From: an uncultured Gemmatimonadaceae bacterium
Lineage (GTDB): Bacteria; Gemmatimonadota; Gemmatimonadetes; Gemmatimonadales; Gemmatimonadaceae
NCBI GenBank assembly: GCA_963822945.1
Contig: CAWGJO010000027.1
Location: 227,728-291,727 of the forward strand
Reading direction: 5' to 3'
Length of the DNA: 64,000 nucleotides
Shown here: positions 23,344-57,809 of the stretch, piece after piece
Layout of the letters: every line of letters starts with the position of its first letter
Numbering within the stretch: the first letter of the stretch is position 1
Program-made: the position numbers and the translations under genes
The notes under the pieces: model-generated
The model's input: only the letters and a program-made list of their open reading frames with translations
Database searches by the model: none
What the model was told of the DNA's origin: nothing

Positions 23344-23374
23344 AGCACCCCTGCCCATTGGGGAGGGGTGCTTT
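23344..23374. terminator. Hairpin, putative intrinsic terminator
   Basis: AGCACCCCT...AGGGGTGCT stem followed by TT, between convergent genes. Confidence 0.5.
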
Positions 23375-23440
23375 GCGATGGCGGCACGTGTCGGCCCCTT
23401 TCCGCTCGTTCAACGCCTTCATATAAGAACCGCAATTTCG
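23372..23440 (-). repeat. ettA-tail repeat copy A (very degenerate, no arm)
   Basis: Translates NCGSYMKALNERKGAD versus consensus NVGSYIEDxKKRKGPD. Confidence 0.55.
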
Positions 23441-23474
23441 GTCGGTGCAGGCGGCCCTCCCCCAAGCCTCGCCG

Positions 23475-25319
23475 TCACCCGCCGCGCCAGACCCCTTCGG
23501 CCCGCGCCGCCACGGCGCCGAGTAATCCCTGCAGCGCCGTGCGCGCTCTGCTCATGGAGCGGGCGTACAGCGCGCGGTATCCCTTCAGGCCGAGCCCACC
23601 GCCTGCCAGCAGACCAACTGCCGCGACGGCGGGGAGCAGCGGTGCGATCCCGATCGCCACGCCGAGCCCGACGCCCCCCGCCAGACCCGCGCCTCCGCTG
23701 AGTGCCGACAGCAACGTCCCCAGCGCAAAGCCGATGTTGTGCGACGTCACGGGGCTGTGCACCGTCAGCTCGCAGGACGCGGACTCTCCCTCCACGGAAC
23801 GCAGCGAGACGAACACCTGGCGGAGCCCCGCGTCTCTGGTCGCGAAACCGAACCCCTGATAGGTGAAGGCGTGGGTACCCGCGATGTTGAAGGCGAGAAC
23901 GCCTCCGTCGAGCGGATCACCCTGCTGGTCGGCAAAGCTCAGCCGGAAGGGCTCTTCGGGAAACACGGCCTCCATGGCTGCGAGCACGTCCCGGGGCGCG
24001 GCTCGGACCACGCGCGTCACGGTAATCGCGTTGGGCGGGTGCTTCAGGAATCGCCGGGCCAGAGCCGTGCTGTGCTGCACGGCGCCGAGTGAGTCCCCGG
24101 TCGCGAGCGGTGAGGTGGATACCGCCGGCGCGCCAGGCTGCGCCAGGCCGTGCTCCACCATCGCGTGCTCCACGTACTGCGCCGGGATGCCTGCTTCGAG
24201 CGCCGCGTCGCGCACCGCCGACAGGTCGTAGCCCGAGGTGCGGCTGGCGTCGCCCGCCGCGTCGCGGGGTGTGGGCACCGGCGTCGGCCGCGGCTCGAGG
24301 CCCGTCTGCGCCTGCAGCTCCGAGGCGCGCGACCAGATGGCCTGCGCTTCCGTCTCCGACACCACCGCCGGCGCCGCCGGATTCGCCGCCGCGCGCACCG
24401 CGTCGCGCGCCACCTCGCCCTCCACGCGTCGCAGCGCCTCGGCCAGTTCGCCGCCCGACTGGAACCGCGCCGCGGGATCCTTGGCCAGACAGCGGTCCAC
24501 AATCTCGGCCAGCGCCCGCGGCGTGTCGGGCACCACGGTGAGCAGGGGCGGGGGCGCCGTGTTCACCTGCGCGATGAGCACCGCCGACGCCAGTGTCGCG
24601 TCGAAGGGGAATTGGCCGGTGAGCGCGTAGAAGCCCACCACGCCCAGCGAATACAGATCGCTGCGGCCGTCCAGCGGCTCGCCGGTCACCTGTTCCGGGC
24701 TCATGTAGTGCACGGTGCCGAGCACCTGGCCGGTGGCCGTGAGCGGCGCCGCCTCGGCCATGCGCGCGATGCCGAAATCGGTGACCATCGCCGAGCCGGT
24801 GGCGCGGTCGATGAGAATGTTCTCGGCTTTCACATCGCGGTGCACCACGCCGCGTGCGCTGGCGTAGCCGAGCGCCGCCGCCACGTCGCGCATCTGGCGT
24901 AGCACGTCGCGCGGATCCAGCCGCCCCGCGTCGCGCACGGCCTCGGCCACCGACACGCCGTCCACGTAGCCCATGGCAAAGAACACCAGGCCGTCGATCT
25001 CGTCGGCGCGGTAGACCGGCACGATGTGCGAGTGCGACAGCATGGCGGCCGTGCGCGCCTCGCGCAGAAATCGTTCGCGGACGGCGGGATCGGCGGCCAG
25101 GTGGGGCGGCAGCGTCTTGAGCGCCACGGGCCGGTCGAGCTTGAGATCGCGGCCCAGGTACACGATGCCCATGCCGCCGCGGCCGATCTCGCGTTCGAGC
25201 GTGTACTGGCCGTCGAGGGCGCGCGAAAGGGCGGCGAATTCGGGCGACGTCGGGGTGGTCGGCTCCTGAATCCGGTCCGCCGACTTGCTGTTGAAATTCC
25301 GGGGATCCGCCTCGCTCAT
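23475..25319 (-). CDS. Ser/Thr protein kinase with C-terminal membrane region
   Basis: IGRGGMGIVY, VALK, HRDVKAEN, DFG, GTVHYMSPEQ, DLYSLG. Confidence 0.93.
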   Translation of the reverse strand: MSEADPRNFNSKSADRIQEPTTPTSPEFAALSRALDGQYTLEREIGRGGMGIVYLGRDLKLDRPVALKTLPPHLAADPAVRERFLREARTAAMLSHSHIVPVYRADEIDGLVFFAMGYVDGVSVAEAVRDAGRLDPRDVLRQMRDVAAALGYASARGVVHRDVKAENILIDRATGSAMVTDFGIARMAEAAPLTATGQVLGTVHYMSPEQVTGEPLDGRSDLYSLGVVGFYALTGQFPFDATLASAVLIAQVNTAPPPLLTVVPDTPRALAEIVDRCLAKDPAARFQSGGELAEALRRVEGEVARDAVRAAANPAAPAVVSETEAQAIWSRASELQAQTGLEPRPTPVPTPRDAAGDASRTSGYDLSAVRDAALEAGIPAQYVEHAMVEHGLAQPGAPAVSTSPLATGDSLGAVQHSTALARRFLKHPPNAITVTRVVRAAPRDVLAAMEAVFPEEPFRLSFADQQGDPLDGGVLAFNIAGTHAFTYQGFGFATRDAGLRQVFVSLRSVEGESASCELTVHSPVTSHNIGFALGTLLSALSGGAGLAGGVGLGVAIGIAPLLPAVAAVGLLAGGGLGLKGYRALYARSMSRARTALQGLLGAVAARAEGVWRGG

Positions 25320-25432
25320 GAACAATGGTCGCTGCCACCGAGCGAATTCACAAGCACGCGAGGTGGCGAACCGACGTTCCATAGCGCCCCGTTGCTGCCC
25401 GTACACATCCCGCCCCCCTCCGTGGCCCCGGT

Positions 25433-25520
25433 CGCATCGAGTCCCTTCCACTGCTTCCGATCTTCTATATAGAAACCGACATTCCCCTCGAACCACGCAC
25501 GCGGCAGTGTGGTTGTGACG
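25433..25520 (-). repeat. ettA-tail repeat copy B
   Basis: VTTTLPRA-WFEGNVGFYIEDRKQWKGLDA. Confidence 0.85.
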
Positions 25521-25587
25521 CGGCCGGCCCACGCTTCACAACGGACCTCTCTTGTATTCGTGCAGCGGCGGGGCTAACGTCGCCCGC

Positions 25588-27168
25588 ATGATTCCATCCT
25601 CTCGCTTGCTCATTGCGGCGCTGCTCTGGCCCGCGGCGCTCGCCGCGCAGACGCCGGATTCCGCGCCGCCCCACGCCGTGGCCGGCTCCGCCCTCGCGCC
25701 CTTTGCGACGAAATCGTCGGGCTCCGTACGCACGCCCGCCGGGACGATTGCCTACGACGCGGTGACGGGCGCCCTGGTCGTGCACCCGAAGGGGTGGGAC
25801 GACGCCGCGCCGCCCGACACGTCGAAGCCGGGCGCCGTCGCCACGATGTCGTACGTGGCGTACTTCAAGACCGGCGCCGGCGCGGCGCAACGGCCGCTCA
25901 CGTTCGTCTTCAACGGCGGACCCGGCTCGGCGACGCTCTGGCTGCACATGGGCGCGTTCGGTCCGCGGCGCGTGGTCACGAACGACCATACGCATACACC
26001 GGGCGCCCCCTACGAGATGGTGAACAACGACCAGACCCTGCTCGACGTCAGCGATCTCGTCTTCGTGGACATGCCGGGCACGGGGCTCGGCCGCGTCATG
26101 GGCAAGGACAAGGCGCAGGCGTTCTACGGCGTGGATCAGGACATCCACGCGTTCGCGGTTTTCATCCGCGACTTCCTGACCAAGTACGACCGCTGGAACT
26201 CGCCCAAGTACATTTTCGGCGAGAGCTATGGCACGATGCGCGGCGCCGGCCTGCCGCTGGCCCTCCAGAACGAGAACATCGACCTCAACGGCGTGATGCT
26301 GCTGTCGTGCATCCTCAACTGGGACACGATGCCCGACGATCCGCAACTGAACCCCGGGATCGACGAGCCGTACATCGTGAGCCTGCCCACGTACGCGGCC
26401 ACGGCCTGGTACCATCACAAGCTGCCGGCGGCGCCGGCGACGCTGCAGCCGTTCCTCGCCGAGGTCGAGCGGTTCGCGACCGGCGACTACGCGCTCGCGC
26501 TGCTCCAGGGCAACGCCCTCCCCGACGCGCAACGGCAGGCCATCGCGGCCAAGCTGCACGACTACACGGGCCTGTCGGTAGCGTACCTGCTCAAGACCAA
26601 CCTGCGCATCGAGTACGGCGCGTTCCAGAAGGAACTCTTCGGCGGCGAAGCGCTGACCACCGGCACGCTCGACACGCGGTTCATCGGCCCAACGCTCGAC
26701 CCACTGAGCAAAGTCAGCGAGTACGATCCGCAGAGTTCGGCGATCGGCGCGGCGTACGTGGCGGCGTTGAACACCTACCTGGCGCAGTCGCTCAAGTACG
26801 ACGGCCCGCTACGCTACAAGACCGGCGTCGGCGTGTACTCGAGCTGGGACTACAAGCATCAGGCGCCGGGCGCCGGCCGGCCGCTCATCGCGCAGCCGAA
26901 CGTGCTGCCGGACCTGGCGGCGGCGATGAAGATGAACCCCACCATGCGGGTGCTGGTGCTGGGCGGATACTACGACGTCTCAACGCCGTACTTCGAGGGC
27001 AAATTCGAGCTGGATCACCTGCCGATCCCGGCATCGCTCGAGCAGAACATCGAGTACCGGTACTATGAGTCGGGACACATGGTGTACGTGAACGTGCCGA
27101 CGCTGAAGCGCCTGCACGAAGACGTGTCGGCGTTCATCCGGGGCGGCGGCCCGCGGTCGTCTCATTGA
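25588..27168 (+). CDS. S10 family serine carboxypeptidase
   Basis: FNGGPGS, DMPGTG, GESYG, GYYD, YESGHMVY; signal peptide. Confidence 0.93.
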   Translation: MIPSSRLLIAALLWPAALAAQTPDSAPPHAVAGSALAPFATKSSGSVRTPAGTIAYDAVTGALVVHPKGWDDAAPPDTSKPGAVATMSYVAYFKTGAGAAQRPLTFVFNGGPGSATLWLHMGAFGPRRVVTNDHTHTPGAPYEMVNNDQTLLDVSDLVFVDMPGTGLGRVMGKDKAQAFYGVDQDIHAFAVFIRDFLTKYDRWNSPKYIFGESYGTMRGAGLPLALQNENIDLNGVMLLSCILNWDTMPDDPQLNPGIDEPYIVSLPTYAATAWYHHKLPAAPATLQPFLAEVERFATGDYALALLQGNALPDAQRQAIAAKLHDYTGLSVAYLLKTNLRIEYGAFQKELFGGEALTTGTLDTRFIGPTLDPLSKVSEYDPQSSAIGAAYVAALNTYLAQSLKYDGPLRYKTGVGVYSSWDYKHQAPGAGRPLIAQPNVLPDLAAAMKMNPTMRVLVLGGYYDVSTPYFEGKFELDHLPIPASLEQNIEYRYYESGHMVYVNVPTLKRLHEDVSAFIRGGGPRSSH

Positions 27169-27325
27169 GTGCGGCATGGGCTGCCGGCCCGGGGATCCGT
27201 CGCGGAGCCGCGCTTGGCGGCCGGCCCTCGGCGCTCGCCCGTCGGGCCATACGCAGATTCAGATTCCCATCCTTGAGAGTCGTTGTTCCTGTTCCCTCTG
27301 AGCACTGTACGGGAGGTTTCCAAAC

Positions 27326-27913
27326 GTGAATGCACGTCGTGGTACACGCTACGCTCGCCCCGCCGCACTCTGCGCGCTCGTGCTGCTCTGCGCTGCGACG
27401 CCGGCGTGCCCTGCAGGCGAAGCTACGGCACGAGCCGGCTCCAGCCTGGTCGGGTCGGGGGTGGGCACCGGCAAGATCGAAGCCTGCAAGCTCATCAGCG
27501 CCACCGCCGCCGGGAAGATCCTCGGCACCACCGTGACCGTGAAGCCCGTCGAGACGTCGGCCGCCGGATCGGATGCCGCTTCCATGTGCAGCTATCAGAC
27601 CGGACAGGTCAGAGGCGGCTTCATGCTGCTCGCCGGACGCGTGAAGTACAGCGACGCCGCAACCGAAGTCGCGGCCAGAAAGAAGGAGGCGGTGTCGGAC
27701 CTTCCGCCGGGTATTCCCACGCCGACGTTCACCGACGTGCATGGGCTCGGTGAGGCGGCCTACCTGGAGAAGACTCCAGAGAGCGTCGAATTGCACGTGC
27801 TCCAGCACGGCGTCGTGGTCGTCATCACGTTCGTCCGAAAGGCCGACCAGACGGTGGTCCGGCAGTGCGAGCAGTTGGCCCGCATCGCGCTGGGAAACGT
27901 TGCCGGGAGCTGA
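27326..27913 (+). CDS. Hypothetical exported protein
   Basis: Hydrophobic N-terminus, ACKLIS...ILG, CSY, GLGEAAY pattern. Confidence 0.65.
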   Translation: MNARRGTRYARPAALCALVLLCAATPACPAGEATARAGSSLVGSGVGTGKIEACKLISATAAGKILGTTVTVKPVETSAAGSDAASMCSYQTGQVRGGFMLLAGRVKYSDAATEVAARKKEAVSDLPPGIPTPTFTDVHGLGEAAYLEKTPESVELHVLQHGVVVVITFVRKADQTVVRQCEQLARIALGNVAGS

Positions 27914-28151
27914 ACCCGCATTCGGCGTGAGCTGAAGGGCCAGGCGACCATGCGGCCCATCTCACCGACCTCGAGGACTGGTGGGGATCAACGCCCATCG
28001 ACGCCAGGAGTTGACTGGGCCCTCGCGGGCCCCCCTCCCCGAAAGTTGGACCGGGCGGACTGGCGTAATGACAAGCTGAACGGTTGCGGTGAACTCCGGC
28101 ACCGCGAGGGCTCCGGCTCAGCCGCGCCCCTTGGCGGGCCATGGCGTGCCC

Positions 28152-28380
28152 CTACCCCCTCACCAACTTCCGATACGTCACCCGGTGCGGCTGATCCGCA
28201 TCCGGTCCCTTCTGCTTTGTCAGAATTTCTATATAAGCCCGAAAATTCGCCCCGAACCACGCATGCGAAATGGTGGTTATGACGGGATCAGCGTGATCCT
28301 CATAGGGGAAATGGCGCGAGGTCGTGTAGTTCGCCTTTGTCACGAGCGCACGTTCGTGACAATGCCTCTCGTCGCGGATC
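28152..28380 (-). repeat. ettA-tail + arm repeat copy C
   Basis: WFGANFRAYIEILTKQKGPDADQPHRVTYRKLVRG*; arm with TTGTCACGA-N8-TCGTGACAA at 28337-28362. Confidence 0.9.
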
Positions 28381-28527
28381 TGGCCTGCGGCCGATGGCCC
28401 ACTCGATTTCTCGCTTTCTTGACGGTCCGAGATCGGACTGGCCGGTTCAGACGGCCCAGTCCGCATGATCAGCGTTCCTCAGAACGGAGGGAAGGTCAAC
28501 GACGTGTGGCCCTGACTCCGTCCCAAC

Positions 28528-30819
28528 TCATTGCTCGAATCCCATCTTGGTCACGAGCGCGCGCCAGCGAGGGTCGCCGTGCAGGGGGCGCAGGCGAGGG
28601 ATGGTCTTCAGATAGGCGAGGCCAGTGTCGCGTGTCGCATAGGCACGCTCCAGCCATTCGAACGCCGCATCCGCTTCGCCGCTGGCCGCGTACACCTCCG
28701 CCACCTGCATGCCCCACGTCTCGGCGTGCCCCTCGATCAGCTGTCGGAGGGCGGCATCCGACTTCGCCCGCTGCCCCGAGGCACGATGGACGATGGCCAC
28801 CGCCCAGAGGCGATACCCTTCCTCCGGCTCCCGTTGCGCCTCGCGCAGCGCCTCCTCTACCCGGTTGCCGGCCAGCGTGTTGAGGGCGAGGTGGGCGTGC
28901 GTCGCGATACGCTGCGGGGCCAGCGCGAGCGCCTTGCCAAACGCTTCCTCGGCGCCCGCAAGATCATCGACCGCGTGCAGCGCGAGCCCGAGGCTGTGGT
29001 AAGCTGCCGCGCTCAGGGGATCCTGTTCCAGGGCGCGGCGGAAAATGCCGAGCGACTCGTGCAGCCTCCCGAGGGTGCTCGCGAGCACGCCCGACAGGCG
29101 GAGGGCGGATGCACTTCCGGGCGCGAGATCCAGTGCTCGGGCCAGCGATGCTTCCGCGCCGCGCCAGTCCCAGTCGCAGAAGATCCTGATCCAGGCAATC
29201 TGCGTGTGGGCCTCCGCCAGGTTCGGCTCCAGAGCAAGCGATCGCTCCACCGCCTCCCGGCCGCGCGCATATCCCTCCTCTACCGGCGTCAGCTGCCAGC
29301 CCACTTGCCGCACGTACGCGACACTCAACTTCGCCCAGGCGAGCGCGAAGCGAGGATCTCGCTCAACCGCCTGTTGCAGATATCCGACGGCGTTCCCCGT
29401 TGCCTCGCGGTTGTACTGGTCCATCAAGTGGCACGCCAGGAGATACATCCGATGGGCTTCCGGATCGGTGCTGCGCCCCTTTGCCGCCCGCTCGACCTCG
29501 GCCTTCGCACGGTCGCTGGCCGCGGAGTCAGCGGCCTCGCCCAGCAGGGTCGTCCGCAGCTCCTTCACCACGGACCGCGCGATGTCGTCCTGCACCGCGA
29601 AGATGTCGTCCAGGGTTCGGTCGTACGTCTCGGACCAGAGATGGTACCCTTCAGGCACCTTCACCAGTTGCACATTGATGCGCACGCGGTTCCCCGCCCG
29701 GCGTACGCTGCCGTCGACCAGCGTCGCGACGTTGAGCGACCTTCCCACCTCGGCAGGCGGTACACTCTTGCCTTTGAATTGGAACGACGACGCGCGGGCC
29801 GAGACACGCAGCCCTTTGATCTTGGCCAGCAGGCCGAGCAGCTCGTCCGCCAGGCCGTCGGAGAAGTACTCGTCCTCCGGGTTGGCACTCCGGTTGACGA
29901 ACGGCAATACCGCAATGGACGCGATACGCGGTGAGCGGCCGGGTGTTGCGGGCGCCGTGCCGCGCTCGAGCGTGCGCTTCATCTCGCGCAGTTCGTTCGC
30001 CAGCTCCAGGGCGGTCTGGAACCGGTCGCCCGGCTGCTTCTCCAGACACCGGCCGATGATGCGCTCGAGTTGGACCGGCACGTCAGTGCGAACACTGGTG
30101 AGCGCTGGCGCGTTCTCGCTGACGATGGCGGCAAGCAGCTGCCAGGAGGTCTTCCCGACGAACGGTGAGCGCCCGGTCAGGATCTCGAACCCCAGGATGC
30201 CGAACGAGAACAGATCCGTTCGGGCGTCCACGACTTCGTTGAGGGCCTGTTCGGGCGCCATATAGAGCGCGGTGCCCAGCACTTCTCCGGTCATGGTCAG
30301 CGAGTCCACGAGCTTGCTCCGCGGCTGATCCTCCACGTCCTGCATCAGCTTGGCGATGCCGAAGTCCAGCACTTTGACGCGGCCCTCGCTCGTTACCATC
30401 ACGTTGGCGGGTTTCAGATCGCGGTGCACGACGCCCTTCTGGTGCGCCGCCGCCAGCGCATCGGCGAGCGGGATCAGCAAGTCGAGCACCTGATCGAGCG
30501 GCAGGCCACCCGGCGTGATCAGGTCGCCCAGATTTCGACCTTCCACCAATTCCATGGTGAGGAACCGCGTACCGCCTGCCTCCTCGATGGAGTAGAGGGT
30601 AATGATGTTCGGGTGATTGAGGCTCGCCACGATCTTCGCTTCACGCTCGAAGCGAGCCAGACGCTCCGCACTGGAGGCGAGCGCATCGGGCAGCACCTTG
30701 ACTGCGACGTCTCGTCCGAGTCGTGCGTCGTGCGCGCGGTGTACCTCCCCCATTCCGCCCGTACCGAGCGGTGCGACGATCTCGTAGCTTCCTAGGCGGG
30801 TGCCAGCGACCAGGGGCAT
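28528..30819 (-). CDS. Ser/Thr kinase with TolB-N-like and TPR domains
   Basis: MPLVAGTRLGSYEI, HRDLKPAN, DFG, YMAPEQ; SIAVLPFVN..DEYFSDG; TPRs. Confidence 0.93.
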   Translation of the reverse strand: MPLVAGTRLGSYEIVAPLGTGGMGEVHRAHDARLGRDVAVKVLPDALASSAERLARFEREAKIVASLNHPNIITLYSIEEAGGTRFLTMELVEGRNLGDLITPGGLPLDQVLDLLIPLADALAAAHQKGVVHRDLKPANVMVTSEGRVKVLDFGIAKLMQDVEDQPRSKLVDSLTMTGEVLGTALYMAPEQALNEVVDARTDLFSFGILGFEILTGRSPFVGKTSWQLLAAIVSENAPALTSVRTDVPVQLERIIGRCLEKQPGDRFQTALELANELREMKRTLERGTAPATPGRSPRIASIAVLPFVNRSANPEDEYFSDGLADELLGLLAKIKGLRVSARASSFQFKGKSVPPAEVGRSLNVATLVDGSVRRAGNRVRINVQLVKVPEGYHLWSETYDRTLDDIFAVQDDIARSVVKELRTTLLGEAADSAASDRAKAEVERAAKGRSTDPEAHRMYLLACHLMDQYNREATGNAVGYLQQAVERDPRFALAWAKLSVAYVRQVGWQLTPVEEGYARGREAVERSLALEPNLAEAHTQIAWIRIFCDWDWRGAEASLARALDLAPGSASALRLSGVLASTLGRLHESLGIFRRALEQDPLSAAAYHSLGLALHAVDDLAGAEEAFGKALALAPQRIATHAHLALNTLAGNRVEEALREAQREPEEGYRLWAVAIVHRASGQRAKSDAALRQLIEGHAETWGMQVAEVYAASGEADAAFEWLERAYATRDTGLAYLKTIPRLRPLHGDPRWRALVTKMGFEQ

Positions 30820-30891
30820 GCCCACGAATGTAGCCCGCGGTGGGGATTGTGCGAATGCCGGTTCGGTGGCTCTCGCTTCCAGTCCCACACG

Positions 30892-31101
30892 CTCACCCGG
30901 CACCAGCCGCCGAGACGTCACCCGCTTCGGGTGATCGCCATCCGGCCCCTTCCGCTTCTTCGAGTCTTCGATACACGCCCGGCAGTTCCCCCGGAATTGC
31001 GCTGGCCAGAGTGTGGTTGTGACGTAATTGGCGTGCCCCTCATTGCGGAAATCGTGGCAGGCCGTGTAGTTCGCCCTTGTCACGAGCCATGGTCGTGACG
31101 A
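30892..31101 (-). repeat. ettA-tail + arm repeat copy D
   Basis: FRGNCRACIEDSKKRKGPDGDHPKRVTSRRLVPG; TTGTCACGA-N7-TCGTGACGA at 31077-31101. Confidence 0.88.
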
Positions 31102-31159
31102 CGCCGCTCGCCGATCCGTTCGCACGAACCCCTTCACGGAAGGCGAGCCCGGGCGCCAT

Positions 31160-31198
31160 TACTTAGGCCTTGACCTTAGTATTAATCGGGTATATACT
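31160..31198 (+). promoter_or_regulatory. Sigma70 promoter TTGACC-N17-TATACT overlapped by an imperfect inverted repeat (ArsR operator candidate)
   Basis: TTGACC 31170-75, TATACT 31193-98; TACTTAGG...CCTTAGTA. Confidence 0.6.
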
Positions 31199-31242
31199 CT
31201 CTCCGCCGGAACGGAAGACCCAACCAATCCACGGGTGGTGCC

Positions 31243-32072: not shown

Positions 32073-32099
32073 GGGCGGTCGGAGCGCCGGCGCGGGATG

Positions 32100-38885: not shown

Positions 38886-38926
38886 CGCATCAACTTCCGA
38901 TACGTCACCCGCTGCGGCTGACCGGC
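38886..38926 (-). repeat. ettA-tail repeat copy E (short, no arm)
   Basis: CAACTTCCGATACGTCACCCGCTGCGGCTGA, minus strand QPQRVTYRKLMR. Confidence 0.8.
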
Positions 38927-39080
38927 GTTTGTATCGAGCTCACGCGGCGAGAGATCGCGGCCACGACTTCCGCGGTGCGCCATGCCGCCGTCGACCGCCC
39001 TATCCAGCGAGCGAAGGCATCCGTCATTCCCCCCGTCGCAATGCTCCAACTTTCAGGGGGGCACGCCACGCGCCACTTGA

Positions 39081-48610: not shown

Positions 48611-48665
48611 CTACCCCATCACCAATCTCCGATACGTCTCCGGGTGCGGCTGATCCGCATTCGGT
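48611..48665 (-). repeat. ettA-tail repeat copy F (short, no arm)
   Basis: PNADQPHPETYRRLVMG*. Confidence 0.8.
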
Positions 48666-48849: not shown

Positions 48850-49406
48850 CTCGGTGTGGTCGCGAGCTTGACATCCGCCGGCGCGATCACGCGGCCGCCG
48901 AAGAAGGCGTCGTCCCACTTGGCCAGGTCCTCGGCCGTCGAGACGATCTACCCGGCGCCGAGCGCCCAGGTGGCCATCGGCCGCGAGGACGCGCGGGCGC
49001 CATGGACCCTGGTGTACCCGGTGGCGAAGTCGCTCAGGCCACGCTCGTCCACGAACTTCCCGAGGGAATCGTCCAGCGAGAGCTTGTGCTGCTCGACCAG
49101 CTGCAGGATGGCCGCGGCGGTGAACTGTTTCGTGATCGAGCCGATCTCGACTCGGGTGTCGACGTCGACCGGCTGCATCCCGGTGAGCGACTGGACGCCG
49201 AAGCCCCGGTCGAGCACGATGTGCCCGTTGTGGGACACCAGCACCTGCGCGCCCGGCAGGTGGCCGCTGGTCACCGCGGCTTCGACGGCGGCAATGAGCG
49301 AGTCGGGCGCCGGATCCGGCGCCTGGGCACGCGCAGCTCCGGCGGTAACGACGACGACGGCGGCGAGCGCTCGAGCACTGCCTCGGATCGTGAGCACGAG
49401 GGCCAT
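48850..49406 (-). pseudogene. Serine hydrolase/beta-lactamase-family pseudogene (internal deletion plus nonsense codon)
   Basis: IGSITKQFTA (SxxK), LSLDDSLGKF jumps to ATGY...WALGAG*IVSTAEDLAKWD. Confidence 0.8.
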
Positions 49407-49488
49407 GGTCCTGTGGAGGTATTTTGCAGTTCTACTACCACTCGGCCCGCATCGCAGTCGTCGGATCGGTGCGGTCGGTCCGGGCGCC

Positions 49489-49782
49489 GTACCTCCGCAC
49501 CAACTTCCGATACGTCACCCGGTGCGGCTGATCGGCATCGGGGCCCTTCCGCTTCTTCGGATCTTCTATATAGGAACCGACATTCCCCTCGAACTACGCA
49601 CGCGGAAGCGTGGTTATGGCGGGACCGGCGCAATCTCCATCGGGGAAATCGAGGCCGGCTCTGTAGTTCACCGTTGTCACCACCCCGGCCTCAGGGTAAG
49701 GCCGCTTGTCACGGATTGGACCACACGGCGGCCGGCTACGATCCGGGCTTCGGTGAATCAGCTCATCTGCGTCCCCGCTTTC
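49489..49782 (-). repeat. ettA-tail + long arm repeat copy G
   Basis: *FEGNVGSYIEDPKKRKGPDADQPHRVTYRKLVR; arm alignable to copy H for ~190 bp. Confidence 0.9.
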
Positions 49783-49913
49783 TTCGCTCGCCCGAGTGTC
49801 CGCCCTCGCCTCAGCTCCCTGTCGAAACGCGACTCAGGCTGTGTCGCTCTTCAGGGACCCTGGATTCGGGACCGCGCTGCGCGGCGAGATTCAAATTGGA
49901 GGTATGTGGATAC

Positions 49914-49950
49914 TTGACAGAGTTAGACATCTGGCTAATTATCTAATTAT
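49914..49950 (+). promoter_or_regulatory. Sigma70-like promoter/operator of the sdpR-like operon
   Basis: TTGACA at 49914 followed by AT-rich TTAGAC...TAATTATCTAATT. Confidence 0.5.
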
Positions 49951-49976
49951 CGAAGCTACTTGAACCACAGGAGCGA

Positions 49977-50261
49977 ATGAAGCAGCAGCAAGTCTTCAAG
50001 GCCATGGCCGACCCGACTCGGCGTGCGATCCTCAGGCGTCTGCGCGCCGGTGCGCTAACGGCGGGCGAGATCGGTGAGGCGTTCGACATCACTTCCGCCT
50101 CGCTGTCGCATCACTTCGCCGTGCTCAAGCAGGCCGATTTGGTGCGAACGGAGCGTCGTGGTCAGTTCATCGTCTACTCGCTCAATAGCACCGTGTTGGA
50201 GGACTTGGCACGGATACTTCTGGACATGTTCCCGGGCAAGCCCGGCGCAGGGGGCAAGTGA
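49977..50261 (+). CDS. sdpR: SdpR-like ArsR family autorepressor
   Basis: FKAMADPTRRAIL, LTAGEI, SLSHHFAVLKQADLV, GQFIVYSLNSTV; precedes SdpI-like gene. Confidence 0.85.
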   Translation: MKQQQVFKAMADPTRRAILRRLRAGALTAGEIGEAFDITSASLSHHFAVLKQADLVRTERRGQFIVYSLNSTVLEDLARILLDMFPGKPGAGGK

Positions 50262-50905
50262 TGACGGTCAAGCGCAGTGTGCTGGTGTCGTTGGTCTTCT
50301 TTGTGATTGCCGCGGTCGTGGCGGTGTGGTTGTACCCGCGGCTGCCGGCCCAGGTGGCCGTGCACTGGGATCGCAATGGCCGAGTCAACAATCACATGCC
50401 GCGGCTCTTGGGCGCGGCGTTCCCGGCGCTGCTGATCCTGGCGATCGCGGTGCTGACATGGGTACTGCCGGCGATTTCGCCGCGACACTTTGAGATCAGC
50501 CCGTTCGCCCGGGTTTTCCTGCTGCTCATGCTGGCGACGCAGGCGCTGGTGTTGGTACTGGGTCTGGATACGCTGCTGGCGGCCGCCGGATATGTCGTCC
50601 ACATGCGCGAGATCGGCATGCTTGGCGCGGGCGCCTTGTTCATGATTCTGGGCAATTACATGGGCAAGCTGCGCAAGAACTTCTTCGTCGGCATCCGCTC
50701 ACCGTGGACACTGGCCAGCGACGCGGTGTGGGAGCGTACCCATCGCATGGCCGGTTGGTTGTTCATGGTCGCCGGGCTGTTGGCGGTCGTGCTGATCCTT
50801 GCCGGCAGTCCGCAGTGGCTGACGCTCACGCTGTTCATCGCGGCCGGACTGACGCCGTACGGCTACTCGCTGGTCATTTACAAGCGGATCGAGCGCGACC
50901 ACTGA
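50258..50905 (+). CDS. sdpI: SdpI family membrane protein (DUF1648)
   Basis: LPAQVAVHW..NG, GNYMGK..KNFFVGIRSPWTL...WERTHR. Confidence 0.88.
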   Translation: MMTVKRSVLVSLVFFVIAAVVAVWLYPRLPAQVAVHWDRNGRVNNHMPRLLGAAFPALLILAIAVLTWVLPAISPRHFEISPFARVFLLLMLATQALVLVLGLDTLLAAAGYVVHMREIGMLGAGALFMILGNYMGKLRKNFFVGIRSPWTLASDAVWERTHRMAGWLFMVAGLLAVVLILAGSPQWLTLTLFIAAGLTPYGYSLVIYKRIERDH

Positions 50906-50954
50906 ACAGACATGGCTGGTCGCCCTGTCCGATTTCAGCAATAAGGAAACCGAT

Positions 50955-52286
50955 ATGATTCGCCGAATATGTGGTGTCGCGTTGTTCGCCCTGGCTCTCG
51001 CTCCGTACACGGTTCATGCCGCCGAGGCGCCGCCGGTCTGCCAGACGCAGGCCACGGCCCTTCTGGATGCGTTGGCGCGCCAGGACTACGCACACGCCGA
51101 CACCGGTTTCGACGCCGCGGTCGCGCACGCACTTGGCCCCGCGGCGTTGCAGGCGATGTGGACCAAGTTGCAGCGGCAGTTCGGCCGATACCGCGCCCAC
51201 GGCGCACCGCAAGCGAGGACCATCGCCGGGCAACCGACGGTGGCGACCCGGGTCACATTCGCGAAACGGGACCTTGAGGCGCTGGTGGCCTGCGATGGCG
51301 ACGGCCAAATCAAAGGCTTCCGGCTGGTCCCGGCACCGCCGGCCCGCAGCACGCCTCGCAGCGGACACATCGAGCCCAACGGCGTGCGCGAGGAGCCGGT
51401 AACGGTCAAGTCGCCACTGGGTCCGTTAGCGGGGGAGTTGGTGCTGCCAGCCGGCAACGGTCCGTTCCCCGCCGCGGTGTTGGTGGCCGGTTCGGGTGCG
51501 CACGACATGGACGTGAGCATCGGCCCCAACAAGACGTTTCGGGAAATCGCCATGGACCTGGCGGCGCAGGGAGTCGCCTCGCTGCGCTACGACAAGCGCA
51601 CCTACGACTACGGCCTGGCTGTGGCCGGGGACGCGCACTTCACGATCGACCAGGAAGTCACGGATGACGCGCTGACTGCACTGACCGTGCTTGCGCACCA
51701 GCCACACATCGACGGCAAGCGCCTGTTCGTGATCGGTCGCAGCCTGGGCGCGATGATGGCGCCGCGGATCGGTGAACGCGACCCGGCGTTGGCCGGCCTG
51801 GTCATGCTGGCGGCGCCGGCCCGCCCAACGCTGGCGGTAATCGCACAGCAGGTTCGCGAGCAGGGCAAGTTGGCCGGCGCTACCGACCAGCAGATCGCCC
51901 GTCGCGAGCAGGCCGTCGCCACCGAGCGCGAGTTGCTGGCGCACGCCGATCCGAAGCATCCGCCTGCCGGCAAGTACGCGCATGTACCGCAGAGCTACTG
52001 GTTGAGTCTCCAGCGGTACGACCAGGTCAAGACTGCCGAACGCCTGACGATGCCGATGCTGTTCTTGCAGGGTGGCAGTGACTTCCAGGTCTCGCCGGTC
52101 GCCGATTTCGATCGCTGGCGCACTCTGCTGCGTGGCCACTCGAACGTCGCGTTTCACCTGTATCCGGGTCTGAGCCACCTGTTCACGCCGGCTGGCAAAA
52201 CGGGCACCATCGCCGATTATCAGGCGCCACAACACATCGATGCAAAGGTGATCCGCGATATCGCCACCTGGATCAAGGCGCACTAG
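50955..52286 (+). CDS. Exported alpha/beta hydrolase with DUF3887-like N-terminus
   Basis: GSGAHDMD, LRYDKR, GRSLG nucleophile elbow, QGGSDFQV, GLSHLF. Confidence 0.87.
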   Translation: MIRRICGVALFALALAPYTVHAAEAPPVCQTQATALLDALARQDYAHADTGFDAAVAHALGPAALQAMWTKLQRQFGRYRAHGAPQARTIAGQPTVATRVTFAKRDLEALVACDGDGQIKGFRLVPAPPARSTPRSGHIEPNGVREEPVTVKSPLGPLAGELVLPAGNGPFPAAVLVAGSGAHDMDVSIGPNKTFREIAMDLAAQGVASLRYDKRTYDYGLAVAGDAHFTIDQEVTDDALTALTVLAHQPHIDGKRLFVIGRSLGAMMAPRIGERDPALAGLVMLAAPARPTLAVIAQQVREQGKLAGATDQQIARREQAVATERELLAHADPKHPPAGKYAHVPQSYWLSLQRYDQVKTAERLTMPMLFLQGGSDFQVSPVADFDRWRTLLRGHSNVAFHLYPGLSHLFTPAGKTGTIADYQAPQHIDAKVIRDIATWIKAH

Positions 52287-52528
52287 GAAGACACGGAAGA
52301 GAATCAGCGTCGCGCTGCCGGTGGACTTGCCGCCTCTACATTCACGACGTGGCGCGGCGTCACTGAACGGCGAGCATCATTTCCCGGCACCGGCGTGATC
52401 CTCTCCCCCGACGACGGGCGGGCGCGATCCGAGCCTCGAAAGTGGCCGTGCCCGGCCCGACTTTGCCGCTGCACGACGAGTCGGACCGCCTCGAGGTGAA
52501 CTCGATTTCTGGGGCGCCTGCATGGCAG

Positions 52529-53191
52529 TCACCTCCGCGATCTCGATGGGCTCGCATCCTTCGAACGTCGACTCCCAACCATGGCGTTCTGATCGCGTCC
52601 ATTGGGCTTGGGTTCGAGGTAACGCGAAAGCATCCACACGAGCTCGTCGCGAAAATCCGGGTCCCGCAGCCACTCGGGATGAGTACACACCGCTTCGTCA
52701 ATTGCGCCCAACAACGCACGGCGAGCTGTAAAAACCATCATTTCGGGTCGCCGCGCATCTCGCGCCTTCGTCAACAGCATGGCCGCCACCATCTCGTTCC
52801 GGCCTTGTGCCTCGGGGTCGCGCATACCACGCGGCAGCCTCATCAGCAGCGTCCGGTGGAGCACGGCATTGTCGGCATGTTCAGCAAGCGCCGCATCGAC
52901 GAGTTCGACCAGGAGCTCGGCCAATGGTAGTTCGAGCAATCGTTTCCAGGTCGCGGCGTCGATTTGCGCGGGCTTGCCGACATGTCGCGCCTGCAGCGCG
53001 TCGAGGATTGCTGCCTTATTGGGAAAGTACTGGTAGAGCGATGCGATATTGACACCCGCCCGCTCGGCAATGTGGTTGGTGGTGAAACCCTCGAGACCAC
53101 GCTCGGCCAGAATGTAAGCCGCAGCGTCGAGGATGTATTGGACCGTTTGCTGGGAGCGAGACTGCTTCGGAATCTTACGCACTTGGATCAC
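52529..53191 (-). CDS. TetR/AcrR family regulator
   Basis: PKQSRSQQTV, TTNHIAERAGVNIASLYQYFPNK. Confidence 0.9.
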   Translation of the reverse strand: MIQVRKIPKQSRSQQTVQYILDAAAYILAERGLEGFTTNHIAERAGVNIASLYQYFPNKAAILDALQARHVGKPAQIDAATWKRLLELPLAELLVELVDAALAEHADNAVLHRTLLMRLPRGMRDPEAQGRNEMVAAMLLTKARDARRPEMMVFTARRALLGAIDEAVCTHPEWLRDPDFRDELVWMLSRYLEPKPNGRDQNAMVGSRRSKDASPSRSRR

Positions 53192-53274
53192 TCGATTTGG
53201 CCTGGTGCCCAGGATGTGGCAGGCCTATGCAGAATGCAAGTAGCAAAGCAAGGAAAAGCTTATATTTTTCGTGC

Positions 53275-54003
53275 ATGCCCGATGCCTATCCCTCGCGTGA
53301 CGTCGAGGTATTCAGCCGCCTGAACGGGCGCCGCCGAGCCGTGCGCAAGTTCGACGGCACCACGGTGCCGGAACACGTGCTGCGCGCGATTGTCGCGGAG
53401 GCGCAGCTGGCGCCGAGCAGCCGCAACTCGCAGCCGTACAGGTTCGTCTGCGTACGATCCCCGGAGCAACTGGCGGCAATTGCACCGCTCTGCAACGACC
53501 AGATGGCAGCGTGTAGCGCGGCCGCCCTCATCGTGCTCGTGGCGGGCAAACGGTTCGCGTACGAGACCCTGGACGCGTGGGACCGGCACCTCACGACGGA
53601 TTGCGGACTGGGCGATCGAAGCATCGCGCATCATCGCGCCGAACTCACGGCCTCGCGCCTGTTCCTATCGATCGGCAGTTGGCCGGTCTGGTCGCTGCTG
53701 TTGGCGGTGATCGGATTGTTTCAACCGGCGACGAGCCTGCTCCCGGTTGGCGGCATCGGCATGCGTCACTGGACGGCACGAAATGCGATTTTCGCGGCGC
53801 AAACCCTGCTGCTCGCGGCCAGTGCGTATGGGATTGACACCTGTCCGATGGAGGGCTTCAACGCCGTCAAGCTGCGCAAGGCGCTGTGCCTGCCGCGAGA
53901 CCTGCTCATTCCTCTCGTGGTCGCCGTGGGGCGGGCTGCTGTCGATGCACGCATCGAACCGCGCTGGCGAAAGCCACTTGAGGAAACACTCGTCGTCGTG
54001 TGA
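53275..54003 (+). CDS. Nitroreductase family protein
   Basis: RRAVRKF, LAPSSRNSQPY, GIDTCPMEGF. Confidence 0.9.
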   Translation: MPDAYPSRDVEVFSRLNGRRRAVRKFDGTTVPEHVLRAIVAEAQLAPSSRNSQPYRFVCVRSPEQLAAIAPLCNDQMAACSAAALIVLVAGKRFAYETLDAWDRHLTTDCGLGDRSIAHHRAELTASRLFLSIGSWPVWSLLLAVIGLFQPATSLLPVGGIGMRHWTARNAIFAAQTLLLAASAYGIDTCPMEGFNAVKLRKALCLPRDLLIPLVVAVGRAAVDARIEPRWRKPLEETLVVV

Positions 54004-54132
54004 GAGTGGGTCCCAGGCTGGTGGAGCTCGCGTCGCGCACCGATGCTCGACCACACTTCGCGGTCGGAGCCGCCGGTAGAGTGACGGCGAGTCGCAACCT
54101 ACGCGCATCTTGCCCCGGTTAGGAAGTCCTAA

Positions 54133-54426
54133 CTACCCCCGCACCAACTTCCGATACGTCACCCGCTGCGGCTGATCGGCATCCGGTCCCTTCCGCTTCC
54201 TCGGATCTTCTATATAGGAACCCACGTTCCCCTCGAACTACGCACGTGACGACGGGGCTATGACGCGAGCCGGGTGCTCTTCAGAGGGGCCATGGCGCGA
54301 GGCCGTGTGGTTCACGCTCGTCACGAACACATCGTCGTGACAGTCCCTCTTGTCACCGATCGGAAAGCACGACGGGCGGCCACGATTGGGGCTTCGATCG
54401 GGCAACTCTCCCGGGACCCGGAATTC
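54133..54426 (-). repeat. ettA-tail + long arm repeat copy H
   Basis: *FEGNVGSYIEDPRKRKGPDADQPQRVTYRKLVRG*; GTCACGA-N8-TCGTGAC at 54320-54341. Confidence 0.9.
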
Positions 54427-54471
54427 TCCGCCGGTCGCGCCCTGTACCCGGCCACCGCCAACTCACCCCTC

Positions 54472-54936
54472 CTAACTGTCGCCGTCTCGACCCATCAATC
54501 GCTCGAGCTGGATGCGGTGCCGCATCGGATGCACGATCGCGTGCTCCAGCATCTGCTCGATGTTGTAGTCCTCGCCCCAGCGGGACTTGTAAGTGACCGG
54601 AGCGAGTTCGCGATCTTCGAGCACCCCGAGATGACGGCGCCAGCCGGCGAGAACCGCTTCCATGAATGCAGCGCTTCGGCCGGCGATAACCAGGGGGTCC
54701 GTTTCCGAATCGAGGTCGGTGACCGGTCGCTTCACGCACGCGCCAATCCAGGTCAGGTAGTTGCGACACGACCGCAACACGTGTCCGCCCAGGTGCTCGC
54801 TCGACTGGTAGGACGGATCGTCAGTCTCCGGCAGAGGCTTGCCGGAAGCACGAAAGGCGAGCCACGTGTCATGGAACCGCCGCATCTCGATCTCATGCAG
54901 TTCGACGCAGCTTCGCACGGCGTTGCTCTTGAACAT
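54472..54936 (-). CDS. DinB-like four-helix protein
   Basis: HV...Y N-terminal His; YNIEQMLEHAIVHPMRHRIQ. Confidence 0.75.
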   Translation of the reverse strand: MFKSNAVRSCVELHEIEMRRFHDTWLAFRASGKPLPETDDPSYQSSEHLGGHVLRSCRNYLTWIGACVKRPVTDLDSETDPLVIAGRSAAFMEAVLAGWRRHLGVLEDRELAPVTYKSRWGEDYNIEQMLEHAIVHPMRHRIQLERLMGRDGDS

Positions 54937-55041
54937 GTCGCTCCTCCATTTGGATGCGCATCACTCCAGAAGCGAATGGACGTTACTCGGCGCGGACGGA
55001 GGGTGGGCGCCAAACCCGGCCGTCCTGCCGCTTGAGCCCCA

Positions 55042-55542
55042 TTACGGCTCGAGCCCGGCGAGCAACCGCCGCAGGAGCCCGTCCAGCGCGCGCTGCTCGG
55101 CGCGTGTCAGTCCCGCCAGCAACCGCGCTTCGTTCTCCGCGTGCACACCTATCGCTCGGTCGATCATCGCGCGCCCGTGCGGCGTCAGCCGCACCCGCGT
55201 TCCGCGGCGATCCGCCGAATCCGGACGGCGTTCCACGAGCCCCGCCTCGACCAGCCGGTCCAGCCGCTTCGTCGTGCCACCGGAAGAGAGCAGCGTCGCG
55301 CGCATCAACTCCCCGGCGTTCAGCTCGTAGGGCGCACCGCTCCGGCGGAGCGCCGCCAGGATGTCGAACCAGCCGGGCTGCAGGTCGTACGCCGCAAGCC
55401 CCTCCGCCAGCGCGCTGTCCGCCAGACGCATGCAGCGAAACAGCCGGCCGAACAATGCCAACGGCGCCGTATCCAACTCGGGACGCTCCCGCCGCCACTG
55501 TTCGCGGATCACGTCGATACGGTCCTTCGATCGGGGGCTCAT
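55042..55542 (-). CDS. MarR family regulator (UrtR/TamR-like)
   Basis: QWRRERPELD, FDILAALRRSG, SSGGTTKRLDRL, DRRG. Confidence 0.9.
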   Translation of the reverse strand: MSPRSKDRIDVIREQWRRERPELDTAPLALFGRLFRCMRLADSALAEGLAAYDLQPGWFDILAALRRSGAPYELNAGELMRATLLSSGGTTKRLDRLVEAGLVERRPDSADRRGTRVRLTPHGRAMIDRAIGVHAENEARLLAGLTRAEQRALDGLLRRLLAGLEP

Positions 55543-55581
55543 TTGACACTAGAATAGCAGGACACTATCATCCTGGCAAGC

Positions 55582-55597
55582 ATCTTCCTAGGAAGAT
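55582..55597. promoter_or_regulatory. Perfect palindrome ATCTTCCTAGGAAGAT, MarR operator candidate
   Basis: In the divergent MarR/oxidoreductase intergenic region. Confidence 0.65.
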
Positions 55598-55624
55598 ATT
55601 ATTGTTGACACGCCAGGAGGCGGC

Positions 55625-56560
55625 ATGACCGCAGCGCGAGAGACCAGAGCGGTGACCACGAGACGTACCATTCGACTGACGGCGCCCGGCGGGCCCGGCG
55701 GACTGGTGCTCGAAGAGCTCCCGCTCCCGCAACCGCGCGCCGGCGACGTCCTGGTGCGCGTACACGCCGCCGGCATTACCCGCGACGAGCTGACCTGGCC
55801 GGTCGACCGGTTGCCGGCGATTCCATCGTATGAACTCTCGGGCGTCGTCGTGGCCGTTGGACCCGGCGTCGACGCGCCGGCGGTCGGTGACGCCGTCTGG
55901 GGCCTCACCCCCTTCGACCGCGACGGCGTGGCCGCCGAATTCGCGTCGGTGCCCGCCGCCGTGCTCGCGCCCAAGCCCCGCCGGCTTGGCCACACGCGCT
56001 GCGCCGCGATTCCGCTCGCGGCGCTCAGCGCCTGGCAGGGACTGTTCGACCACGGACGGCTCCGGGAAGGGCAGCGCGTCATGATCCACGGCGCGGGTGG
56101 CGGCGTCGGACACTTCGCCGTGCAGCTCGCGCGGTGGCGCGGCGCCCACGTCATCGGCACGGCGTCACCGGCGGGAATGGCGGCGGCCCGCGCCTCCGGC
56201 GCGCACGAGGTGCTCGACCGCTCGAAGCCGAACGCCTCCGCCGGACTCGAGCCCGTCGATCTCGTCTTCGACACCGTCGGCGGCGCTGCCCTGTCCGCGT
56301 TTGGGGAGTTCGTACGCCGCGGCGGCCGGATCGTGAGCGTGGCGGAGCAGCCGCCCGCCGGCCTGGACGGCGTATACTTCGTCGTGGAGCCGCGGCGCGA
56401 GCAACTCGAGGAGATCGGCCGCCTCGTCGATGCCGGCACCCTGGAGCCGGTGCTGGACGCGGTGTTCCCGCTCGCCGATGCGCGGGCCGCCTTCGAGCGG
56501 GTCGCGCAGCCCGGCAAACGCGGCAAGGTCGTGCTCGAGGTGACCAATGACGAGAGTTGA
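55625..56560 (+). CDS. NADP-dependent quinone oxidoreductase (MDR family)
   Basis: VLVRVHAAG, AWQGL, IHGAGGGVGHFAVQLA, GKVVL. Confidence 0.9.
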   Translation: MTAARETRAVTTRRTIRLTAPGGPGGLVLEELPLPQPRAGDVLVRVHAAGITRDELTWPVDRLPAIPSYELSGVVVAVGPGVDAPAVGDAVWGLTPFDRDGVAAEFASVPAAVLAPKPRRLGHTRCAAIPLAALSAWQGLFDHGRLREGQRVMIHGAGGGVGHFAVQLARWRGAHVIGTASPAGMAAARASGAHEVLDRSKPNASAGLEPVDLVFDTVGGAALSAFGEFVRRGGRIVSVAEQPPAGLDGVYFVVEPRREQLEEIGRLVDAGTLEPVLDAVFPLADARAAFERVAQPGKRGKVVLEVTNDES

Positions 56561-57344
56561 ACGTAAGGCGGAGGCGTTCCGCACGCTGCATGCGGGCGCT
56601 CCATTCGTGATTCCCAATCCGTGGGACGCGGGCTCGGCGCGTGTATTCGAGGCGCTGGGATTCCACGCCCTCGCCACTACCAGCTCGGGGTTCGCGTTCA
56701 CCCTCGGCCGGCTCGACGGCGGCACCACGCTCGACGACGTGGCCGCGCACGTCGAGGCGCTTGACCGCGCGACCGCCCTGCCGATATCCGCCGACCTCGA
56801 GAACGGCTACGGGGACGAGCCGGAGAGTGCGGCGCGTGCCGTCACGCGGATTGCGTCGGCCGGTGCGGTCGGCGGCTCCATCGAAGACTGGGACGGCGCG
56901 CAGCACCGACTCTATAGTCGGTCGCACGCCGTGGAACGGATCGCCGCTGCCGTGGAAGCGGCGCGTGCGCTCTCCTTTCCGTTCACTCTCACGGCACGCG
57001 CCGAGAACCACATTCGCGGCAATCCCGATCTGGACGACACGATCGCCCGGTTGAGCGCCTTCGAACAGGCCGGAGCCGATGTGCTCTACGCACCGGGGCT
57101 GGTCACGCTGGAGCAGATCCGGGCCGTCTGTTCGGCGGTGACGAAGCCGGTGAACGTGCTGGCCAGGCCGGATCTCTCGTTCCACCAACTCGTGGAGGCC
57201 GGCGCGCAACGCGTGAGCGTCGGCGGTGCGCTGGCGTGGGTGGCGGCGCGGGCGATGGCCGATGCGGCGATCGCCATTCGCGACCGGGGCGATTTCTCGG
57301 CGCTGTCGGCGCGCGTGCCGTTGGCCGAGTGGTTCACGTCCTGA
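56547..57344 (+). CDS. Isocitrate lyase/PEP mutase family protein
   Basis: PNPWDAGSA, ATTSSG, ADLENGYG, SIED, AGADVLYAP. Confidence 0.9.
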   Translation: MTRVERKAEAFRTLHAGAPFVIPNPWDAGSARVFEALGFHALATTSSGFAFTLGRLDGGTTLDDVAAHVEALDRATALPISADLENGYGDEPESAARAVTRIASAGAVGGSIEDWDGAQHRLYSRSHAVERIAAAVEAARALSFPFTLTARAENHIRGNPDLDDTIARLSAFEQAGADVLYAPGLVTLEQIRAVCSAVTKPVNVLARPDLSFHQLVEAGAQRVSVGGALAWVAARAMADAAIAIRDRGDFSALSARVPLAEWFTS

Positions 57345-57384
57345 AATGGGAGGACGGACATGACGCACGAAGACCTGCGAGCGC

Positions 57385-57589
57385 GGCCATCCGCGAGGTG
57401 TATGCGCAGATGATCGGGAAGGGGATTCGGTTTCAGGCGGAGGAGCCGTTGCCGACACTCCAGCTCGGCGACATCGCCCTGACCGCCACGCCGGCTCGGG
57501 ACGACGCCGGCGCGCGAGCGCAGGTGGTTCGGCGAGAGGCCGACGGCGGCTGGGTGCGTGTGCTGGACCGGCCGGACTTCCGAGCGTAG
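57385..57589 (+). pseudogene. 5'-truncated SnoaL/YybH-like gene fragment
   Basis: AIREVY...GDIAL...AQVVRREADGGWVRVLDRP with no credible start. Confidence 0.5.
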
Positions 57590-57628
57590 CTGCTGTCGAG
57601 ACCTGCGTGAGCGGCCGGCCGACTTGCC

Positions 57629-57809
57629 TTACCCCGCACCAACTTTCGATGCGGCTGATCGGCATCCGGCCCCTTCCGCTTCTTTAACTCTTCTATATAC
57701 GAACCACCATTTCCCTCGAACTACGCATGCCAAAGCGTGGTTATGACGTGATCGGCGTCATCTTCATAGGGGAAATCGCGGGAGGCCGCGTAGTTCACCC
57801 TTGTCACGG
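57629..57809 (-). repeat. ettA-tail + arm repeat copy I (12-bp deletion, arm truncated)
   Basis: VTRVNYAASRDFPYEDDADHVITTLWHA*FEGNGGSYIEELKKRKGPDADQPHRKLVRG. Confidence 0.88.

Follow-up and report, generated by a model that had tools for sequence, protein, structure and literature searches.

The window analysed here is a 64,000-nt stretch of contig CAWGJO010000027.1 (positions 227,728 to 291,727, forward strand; assembly GCA_963822945.1, the source genome G000) from an uncultured Gemmatimonadaceae bacterium. It carries nine partial copies of the 3' end of ettA, the gene of the ABC-F translation factor EttA, all on the minus strand and all between genes. A full copy, or scar, consists of a non-coding arm of ~125 bp joined at a short core to a tail that corresponds to the last 34 codons of EttA, which gives a repeat of about 230 bp. 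Two arm types occur in the genus, and the window copies are of type 1. The scars are listed below, starting from the ettA side.

Copy I, 57631..57813, minus strand: type-1 arm (distal part replaced), core and ettA tail with a 12-nt deletion; E 4e-50
Copy H, 54133..54361, minus strand: full type-1 arm, core and complete ettA tail; E 9e-58
Copy H, 54229..54235, minus strand: putative 7-bp overlap (crossover) at tail nt 3-9, placed by its flanking inverted hexamers
Copy G, 49490..49716, minus strand: full type-1 arm, core and tail; E 5e-58
Copy F, 48611..48665, minus strand: decayed, last 55 nt of the tail only; E 2e-9
Copy E, 38886..38929, minus strand: decayed tail-only remnant; E 2e-7
Copy D, 30896..31111, minus strand: diverged arm, core and tail; E 6e-45
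Copy C, 28152..28380, minus strand: full type-1 arm, core and complete tail; E 2e-66
Copy B, 25433..25545, minus strand: proximal arm, core and first half of the tail, end missing; E 2e-20
Copy A, 23391..23438, minus strand: very decayed tail remnant, not significant alone; E 0.61

The E values come from a search of the whole 3.97-Mb assembly with a DNA profile of 41 arm-plus-tail copies, all taken from other genomes and none from the source genome. The same profile gave no match at E<=5 on the reversed genome. Eight scars, B to I, are significant (E 2e-7 to 2e-66). Copy A by itself scores no better than an off-array match on contig C17 (E 0.56), but in the relative G006 the same kinase gene is followed by a clearer remnant of it (89% over 38 nt). 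An earlier note, made from the letters of the window, had listed nine minus-strand copies at these places, and the list is borne out with copy A as its borderline member. Long chance open reading frames overlap copies B, C and D; gene calls leave all three intergenic.

The note had also recognized the tail peptide as the C-terminus of EttA and predicted an intact, co-oriented ettA to the right of the window. Such a gene is present at C20:943353-945029 and scores 957 bits against TIGR03719, above the cut-off of 807. By tiling rather than by assembly, it would lie ~20 kb past the window across two contig joins: the end of the window's contig overlaps C32 (97.8% over about 400 nt), and the other end of C32 and the end of C20 stop three positions apart within one repeat. 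Three further scars, one at C20:953651-953785 and two on C32, fall between the window and ettA, raising the array from the nine copies of the note to 12. Contig C10 resembles a second, differing assembly of the unit that separates copy I from the next scar.

As the note had expected, the copies are not scattered over the genome in both orientations. In the whole-assembly search, 11 of the 13 significant non-ettA matches fall in this one array, co-oriented with ettA. A dispersed repeat resembling a miniature inverted-repeat transposable element or a repetitive extragenic palindrome, which happens to include ettA sequence, is therefore largely refuted by clustering and orientation, and the tails moreover show the substitution pattern of a working gene. 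Stray remnants at dnaE2 and in a second array behind queG, together with one inverted pair that flanks an IS3 insertion sequence (IS) in G012, are what such a repeat would leave, but we give this explanation almost no credence.

A fixed crossover in the ettA tail

Twenty-nine arms align without gaps to the reference over 120 nt, and a direct-inverted-direct triple repeat plus the core is conserved in 16 arms from five genera, the spacing of the triple repeat differing by 9-10 nt (about one helical turn) between this genus and the others. A model of this anatomy found new arms in G173, G126 and G052, none of which was in its training set. The same motif recurs on the far side of the tail: as a pair spaced by 12 bp, about 92 and 104 nt past the stop codon, in G006 and G301; as a pair at 120 and 132 nt in G050; and as a single copy at about 90-104 nt in G066, G251 and G244.

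The point of exchange was bounded with hybrid pairs, that is, scars that share only their upstream or only their downstream cargo, the clearest of which switch at the core. Together with scars from other genera they confine the crossover to tail nt 3-11. In the G006/G009 pair the arms are identical (123/123) and the tails match at 87/102, with the first difference at tail nt 12; in the G001/G000 pair the tails are identical (102/102) and the arms differ up to nt -3; the L138/L143 pair shares 101/102 of the tail. Displaced tails in G251, G301, G066, G124 and G062, which represent four other genera, start at or just before the same core. Arms also track upstream cargo (14 versus 963 pairs, p 0.002). 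A 7-bp stretch at the crossover is bordered in some alleles by inverted hexamers, whose symmetry is partial.

A non-coding arm joined at one fixed core to a displaced ettA tail is what the earlier note had read as an attR-like junction, and we support that reading. The layout appears to match the attachment (att) sites of tyrosine integrases: arm-type repeats at a distance from the core are present, and we predict that they are binding sites. Two other identities of the arm were considered and rejected. An attC-like or RNA fold would require a conserved hairpin, of which there is none (consensus fold -0.1 and -4.3 kcal/mol), and a coding vestige does not agree with the lack of codon periodicity (p 0.13).

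We regard the following model as reasonably probable: the scars are attR-type sites of a family of tyrosine-integrase elements, whose members today are cassettes without an integrase, mobilized in trans and shuffled anew by homologous recombination. The element family would have a single target, a fixed core that lies 34 codons ahead of the ettA stop, and the repeats would be hybrid attachment sites. Each unit would be ordered as replacement ettA tail, cargo and arm, and its circular form would bear the arm-tail junction. Crossover at the core of the resident ettA would restore the gene with the incoming tail and leave the arm and the old tail at the far end, and repeated integration would stack the units, the newest adjoining ettA. 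A tyrosine integrase, supplied in trans by a rarely retained helper, may bind the arm-type repeats. Most units would be integrase-less deletion derivatives, trimmed by insertions of the IS3 and IS91 families, and units could be exchanged further by homologous recombination between the 230-bp repeats.

Could a recombinase resident in the host, the integron integrase IntI or XerC/D, act on these sites instead? Behind a displaced tail in G050, and behind intact ettA in G283 and G235, stands a gene of the IntI family, and the one-sided accessory arm is reminiscent of the cer and psi sites. IntI genes, however, lie behind many different genes and were not found in the array-bearing genomes G000, G012, G014 and G015; the arm lacks the attC-like hairpin; and no resemblance to dif is apparent by eye. 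Nor does the crossover fall where an integron would have it, since tail nt 1-2 are not the same in type-2 and other-genus arms. We judge this explanation very improbable. IntI-family genes occur in 169 of the 301 family genomes, often right behind the stop codon of a housekeeping gene (L134, L135, L235, L261-L292), and attC-like sites lie downstream of the intI 3' end in the loci that were read (L134, L135, L235).

Tail history and variation of the array

The tails retain a record of translation. Among 52 distinct scar tails the differences at the three codon positions number 97/69/279. Recurrent variants account for 8/4/28, while singletons are spread evenly (17/21/15), and 37 of the 40 variants of eight intact ettA tails recur in scars. 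The synonymous variation seen in the tails is that of working ettA alleles, and the tails were thus formerly in coding use; the C-terminus of EttA has been swapped between alleles via integration events. Residues that had looked foreign to EttA in the earlier note belong to an allele found in the intact ettA of G011 and G008. Scar decay correlates with rank from ettA, with rho -0.70 in the source genome and a negative sign in 6 of 7 genomes.

The repeat is matched in 13 of 16 genomes of the same genus, 12 of which have two to 14 matches, and 14 metagenome loci found by a translated-alignment scan add further arrays. (Two unpublished genomes, G022 and G065, enter the tallies only.) The arrays downstream of ettA differ between relatives in cargo and in order; single units differ in what they carry, and the breakpoints coincide with the repeat, as the earlier note had proposed. 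The 74 units have a median length of 3.4 kb; 18 are under 1.5 kb, and many are single operons. Individual cassettes can be followed from place to place: Phd/ParE and AbrB-like/Doc cassettes stand directly after ettA in L141, L142, G011 and G015 and between repeats in L145, G001 and G006.

Outside the genus, 19 of the 251 matching family genomes have 2-3 matches. Eighteen of these were examined at least partly and include several true displaced tails with related arms, others resembling assembly duplicates. Large expansion of the array is seen in this genus only. The arm model gave no match in 118 genomes of other families, a search that scored few candidates per genome and missed known copies. 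Two pattern scans of a viral collection were likewise negative. The EttA C-terminus itself was detected there at 24 loci, mostly as ettA at a contig edge, and the closest of them, L197, has an unrelated gene neighbourhood. Many viral contigs (L203-L219) end in ettA with a tyrosine integrase just upstream, which suggests a prophage site near the 5' end of ettA in other phyla. Far away from ettA in G062 (L186:11200-11580), a copy of its tail follows a tRNA-like 3' end at about 170 bp.

Candidate recombinases and insertion sequences

The earlier note saw no integrase in view, and we found none in the source genome array or in any ettA array of the genus. In the source genome, PF00589 gave one Xer-like match over the cut-off and PF00239 gave none. 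No unit of the genus ettA arrays examined bears an integrase; relaxase and mating-pair genes were not specifically searched for in these units. The sole candidate is a 588-aa PF00589 tyrosine integrase in the 41-kb ettA island of G066.

Several results weigh against the model of integrase-borne elements moved in trans. The G066 integrase is separated from the scar by 6 kb, and none of 300 family genomes contains a relative of it. Matches to PF00589 and PF07508 in 17 genus genomes are all outside the ettA arrays, inspection of the genes in the 14 metagenome loci revealed no integrase, and profiles for divergent integrases, applied to 55 stretches, returned only the positive control and one IntI. 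Even the two units that keep both arms, in G006 and G301, are without an integrase (the G301 unit carries a nucleotidyltransferase pair, that of G006 the defence genes ThiF, IrrE, TIR and SIR2-like). No circle or excision joint was observed; four of 17 sequencing runs consisted of short contigs with no joint at a repeat and were uninformative. At the site itself, the far-side pair is kept in only 1 of 79 genus tails and the symmetry of the hexamers is incomplete: 5-6 of 6 positions agree in 14 of 51 type-1 sites, and type-2 sites show no match. Pooled statistics, such as the correlation of decay with rank (-0.57 over 57 copies), are drawn from non-independent data: units are shared between genomes, ettA itself supplies two of the first entries, and the order of the contigs is presumed. 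Finally, the tails overall do not track downstream cargo (median 0.84 against a background of 0.85, p 0.51), and pairs with the same downstream cargo reach 97% tail identity in 4 of 40 cases as against 7 of 1868 unrelated pairs. Because of this uncoupling we conclude that replacement of tails is frequent, a sign of either homologous exchange or re-integration. The additive integration of the earlier note is supported, but its replacement tail does not always travel with the cassette.

The same uncoupling, and the lack of an integrase in the ettA arrays examined, would be expected if one or a few ancient site-specific integrations had been followed only by RecA-type recombination and horizontal exchange between repeats, no site-specific enzyme being active any longer. 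Consistent with this, the L142/L147 pair is identical from arm position -27 onward and not from the core, and gene blocks switch neighbours also where no repeat is seen. On the other hand, several pairs do switch at the core, two arm types and the arms of other genera use that same core, and the decay gradient fits addition at ettA. What is more, arm spacing and motif blocks are fixed across species and genera, which neutral homology would not require. We therefore hold recombination of this kind to be unlikely as the whole explanation.

Remnants of insertion sequences adjoin many arms. The following occur in the window.

57822..57919, plus strand: 5' fragment of an IS91-family Y2 transposase gene fused to the copy I arm; 86% to the intact G010 element
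49787..49841, minus strand: IS3-family left-end remnant upstream of the copy G arm; 84% to an IS3-family element end at C19:26-80
27211..27277, minus strand: remnant of an IS91-family ori-side end within unit C-B

Among the 52 distinct type-1 arms, IS91 pieces are upstream of 14 and IS3-type ends upstream of 13, and 25 have neither. Wherever they were mapped, the IS91 remnants are on the strand opposite to ettA. Only fragments of the Y2 transposase gene were found in the source genome (PF04986 gave no match there, but the controls of that search were silent too); intact genes are present in G010 and G012. In five genomes of the genus, dnaE2 has at its stop codon a junction with an ettA-type core accompanied by pieces of arm or IS91 (G000 C20:456328-456350; L045, L046, L048, L063), probably a secondary site or an IS91-carried insertion.

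These remnants raise the question of whether an IS91-family rolling-circle transposase of the Y2 HUH type uses the arm-tail junction as its termination and nick site and copies units out and in. Besides the number and constant strand of the remnants and the intact transposases, tail-less segments, located at an unrelated gene and at the dnaE2 stop, that extend from an ori end as far as the core, and an IS91-arm fusion in another genus could be cited in its favour. Against it stand the arms with neither IS type or with IS3-type ends, the pieces at queG in other arrangements and the dnaE2 junction, which fits a secondary att site as well. In other genera, unrelated attC-like sequence follows the IS91 5' region, and arms of the same anatomy have no Y2 transposase match nearby. 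The last point is the reason that we regard the IS3 and IS91 pieces alike as residents by which units are trimmed. IS91 is evidently able to take the arm elsewhere; as the agent that moves the units, it seems to us distinctly improbable. A fixed target tetranucleotide of the IS91 type was looked for and not seen.

In other genera, G102 (C4:3190001-3250000; L095-L097) and G140 (C1:25001-45000; L099) contain arrays of mostly co-oriented IS91-type ori ends, often followed immediately by a cargo gene that replaces the transposase. These are possible rolling-circle cassette arrays.

The queG array, related systems and cargo

The source genome has a second array, in which co-oriented queG tails with a different arm lie downstream of intact queG on C31 and on C19/C37. 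Its copies, roughly 20 in number and with a palindromic core, are spread over C31:16991-55999, C19, C37:53000-81532, C7 and C8 (L011-L013), and its cargo is rich in PadR and duplicated ABC permease pairs. Family assignment of queG was made on the G011 orthologue. A query from this array matches 16 of 17 genus genomes, some of the matches being to an IS91 piece inside the query, and scars follow intact queG in G010 and G011.

Here an integrase is found close to a scar. In G012 and G002, a 480-aa gene of the PF00589 tyrosine-integrase family (L301:13270-14712 and L302:15002-16444) ends 60-80 bp from a displaced queG tail that has a different arm. Of 301 genomes, 4 contain relatives of this integrase, in one case at a tRNA. 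The four aligned homologues all carry Asp at the presumed position of the first catalytic Arg. By analogy, the queG case supports the notion that rare integrase-bearing elements may feed integrase-less arrays.

The two arrays invite a broader reading, possible though on the whole doubtful: not merely decayed islands but a standing, integron-like cassette system that lacks an integrase of its own and has housekeeping-gene ends as its anchor points (two arrays per genome, at ettA and at queG). Its small cassettes would circulate through the genus, put in place by a recombinase of the host or by a shared one acting in trans, and would keep exchanging the 34 C-terminal residues of a translation factor in active use. 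As in integrons, the cassettes are small and rich in toxin-antitoxin genes, have one site each, are newest at one end and vary in order. Unlike integrons, the arrays have no adjacent intI, no attC fold and a different crossover, the site includes a gene tail, and the cargo lies in both orientations with its own promoters.

Other published systems share parts of this organization. According to PMC5704250, cis-mobilizable elements (CIMEs) related to ICESt1 and ICESt3 accrete in tandem at 3' gene ends, decayed units losing integration genes and keeping att sites, and the target gene, at the end of which the elements pile up, is restored. The ettA arrays likewise consist of units without integrase genes, bounded by att sites at the restored 3' end of the target. 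They differ in that no integrase-bearing integrative and conjugative or integrative and mobilizable element was seen in any ettA array of the genus, in that there are up to 12 units, and in that the same cassette takes different positions across species. The Dehalococcoides islands at ssrA, the transfer-messenger RNA (tmRNA) gene, are described in PMC3146451 as having a 20-bp repeat and 16 islands with a serine-integrase module; over a dozen direct repeats after one target, a conserved non-target motif upstream of every repeat and strain-specific cargo are common to both systems. In the ettA system a protein gene serves as the target, repeats measure about 230 bp, and no serine-recombinase module was found in the units. 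Islands at tRNA and tmRNA genes of the kind collected by Islander (PMC4383910) split and restore their target by means of tyrosine integrases, and a displaced 3' fragment marks the island end; unlike these, the ettA array has a protein-coding target and many small units without integrase.

A literature search that did not extend to supplements found no account of ettA-tail or queG-tail arrays, and island-database tables could list either target. A preprint (10.64898/2026.09.08.750204) names an island 'DUF756|ettA', to judge by this label an intergenic one. The ettA array is real and extends across the genus; cassettes have accreted there at a protein-coding gene, which is new as a target, and the sites are mapped well. 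The two parallel arrays of the source genome, each tens of kb long, hold kinases, extracytoplasmic function sigma factors, transport operons, toxin-antitoxin and defence genes, and amount to precisely mapped, genus-wide platforms of gene exchange in a poorly studied lineage of soil and sediment. The core, near arm and far-side pair are defined well enough for a mini-cassette assay; therefore the movement of integrase-less islands is testable, and such an assay could show whether these arrays functionally parallel integrons.

Three units of the window illustrate the cargo.

Unit I-H, 54427..57628, strand not assigned: MarR, zinc dehydrogenase, PEP-mutase-like and genes of no assigned function
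Unit H-G, 49842..54132, strand not assigned: ArsR-SdpI-hydrolase block and nitroreductase
Unit D-C, 28528..30696, minus strand: a single Ser/Thr kinase-TPR gene

The short unit G-F is a truncated gene of the beta-lactamase family (PF00144; window 48948-49406), a 431-aa version of which is found in the G012 array. Tandem paralogous secreted proteins of about 470 aa are encoded at 4029-7034 and 62321-64000 of the window and also on C32 and C10. In G006 the unit right after ettA (L038:4611-12685) is defence-like, with ThiF, an E2-like protein (assigned by eye), HTH plus IrrE, TIR and SIR2-like genes. At L009:10429-11487 the first unit after ettA contains an intact IS110-family transposase gene.

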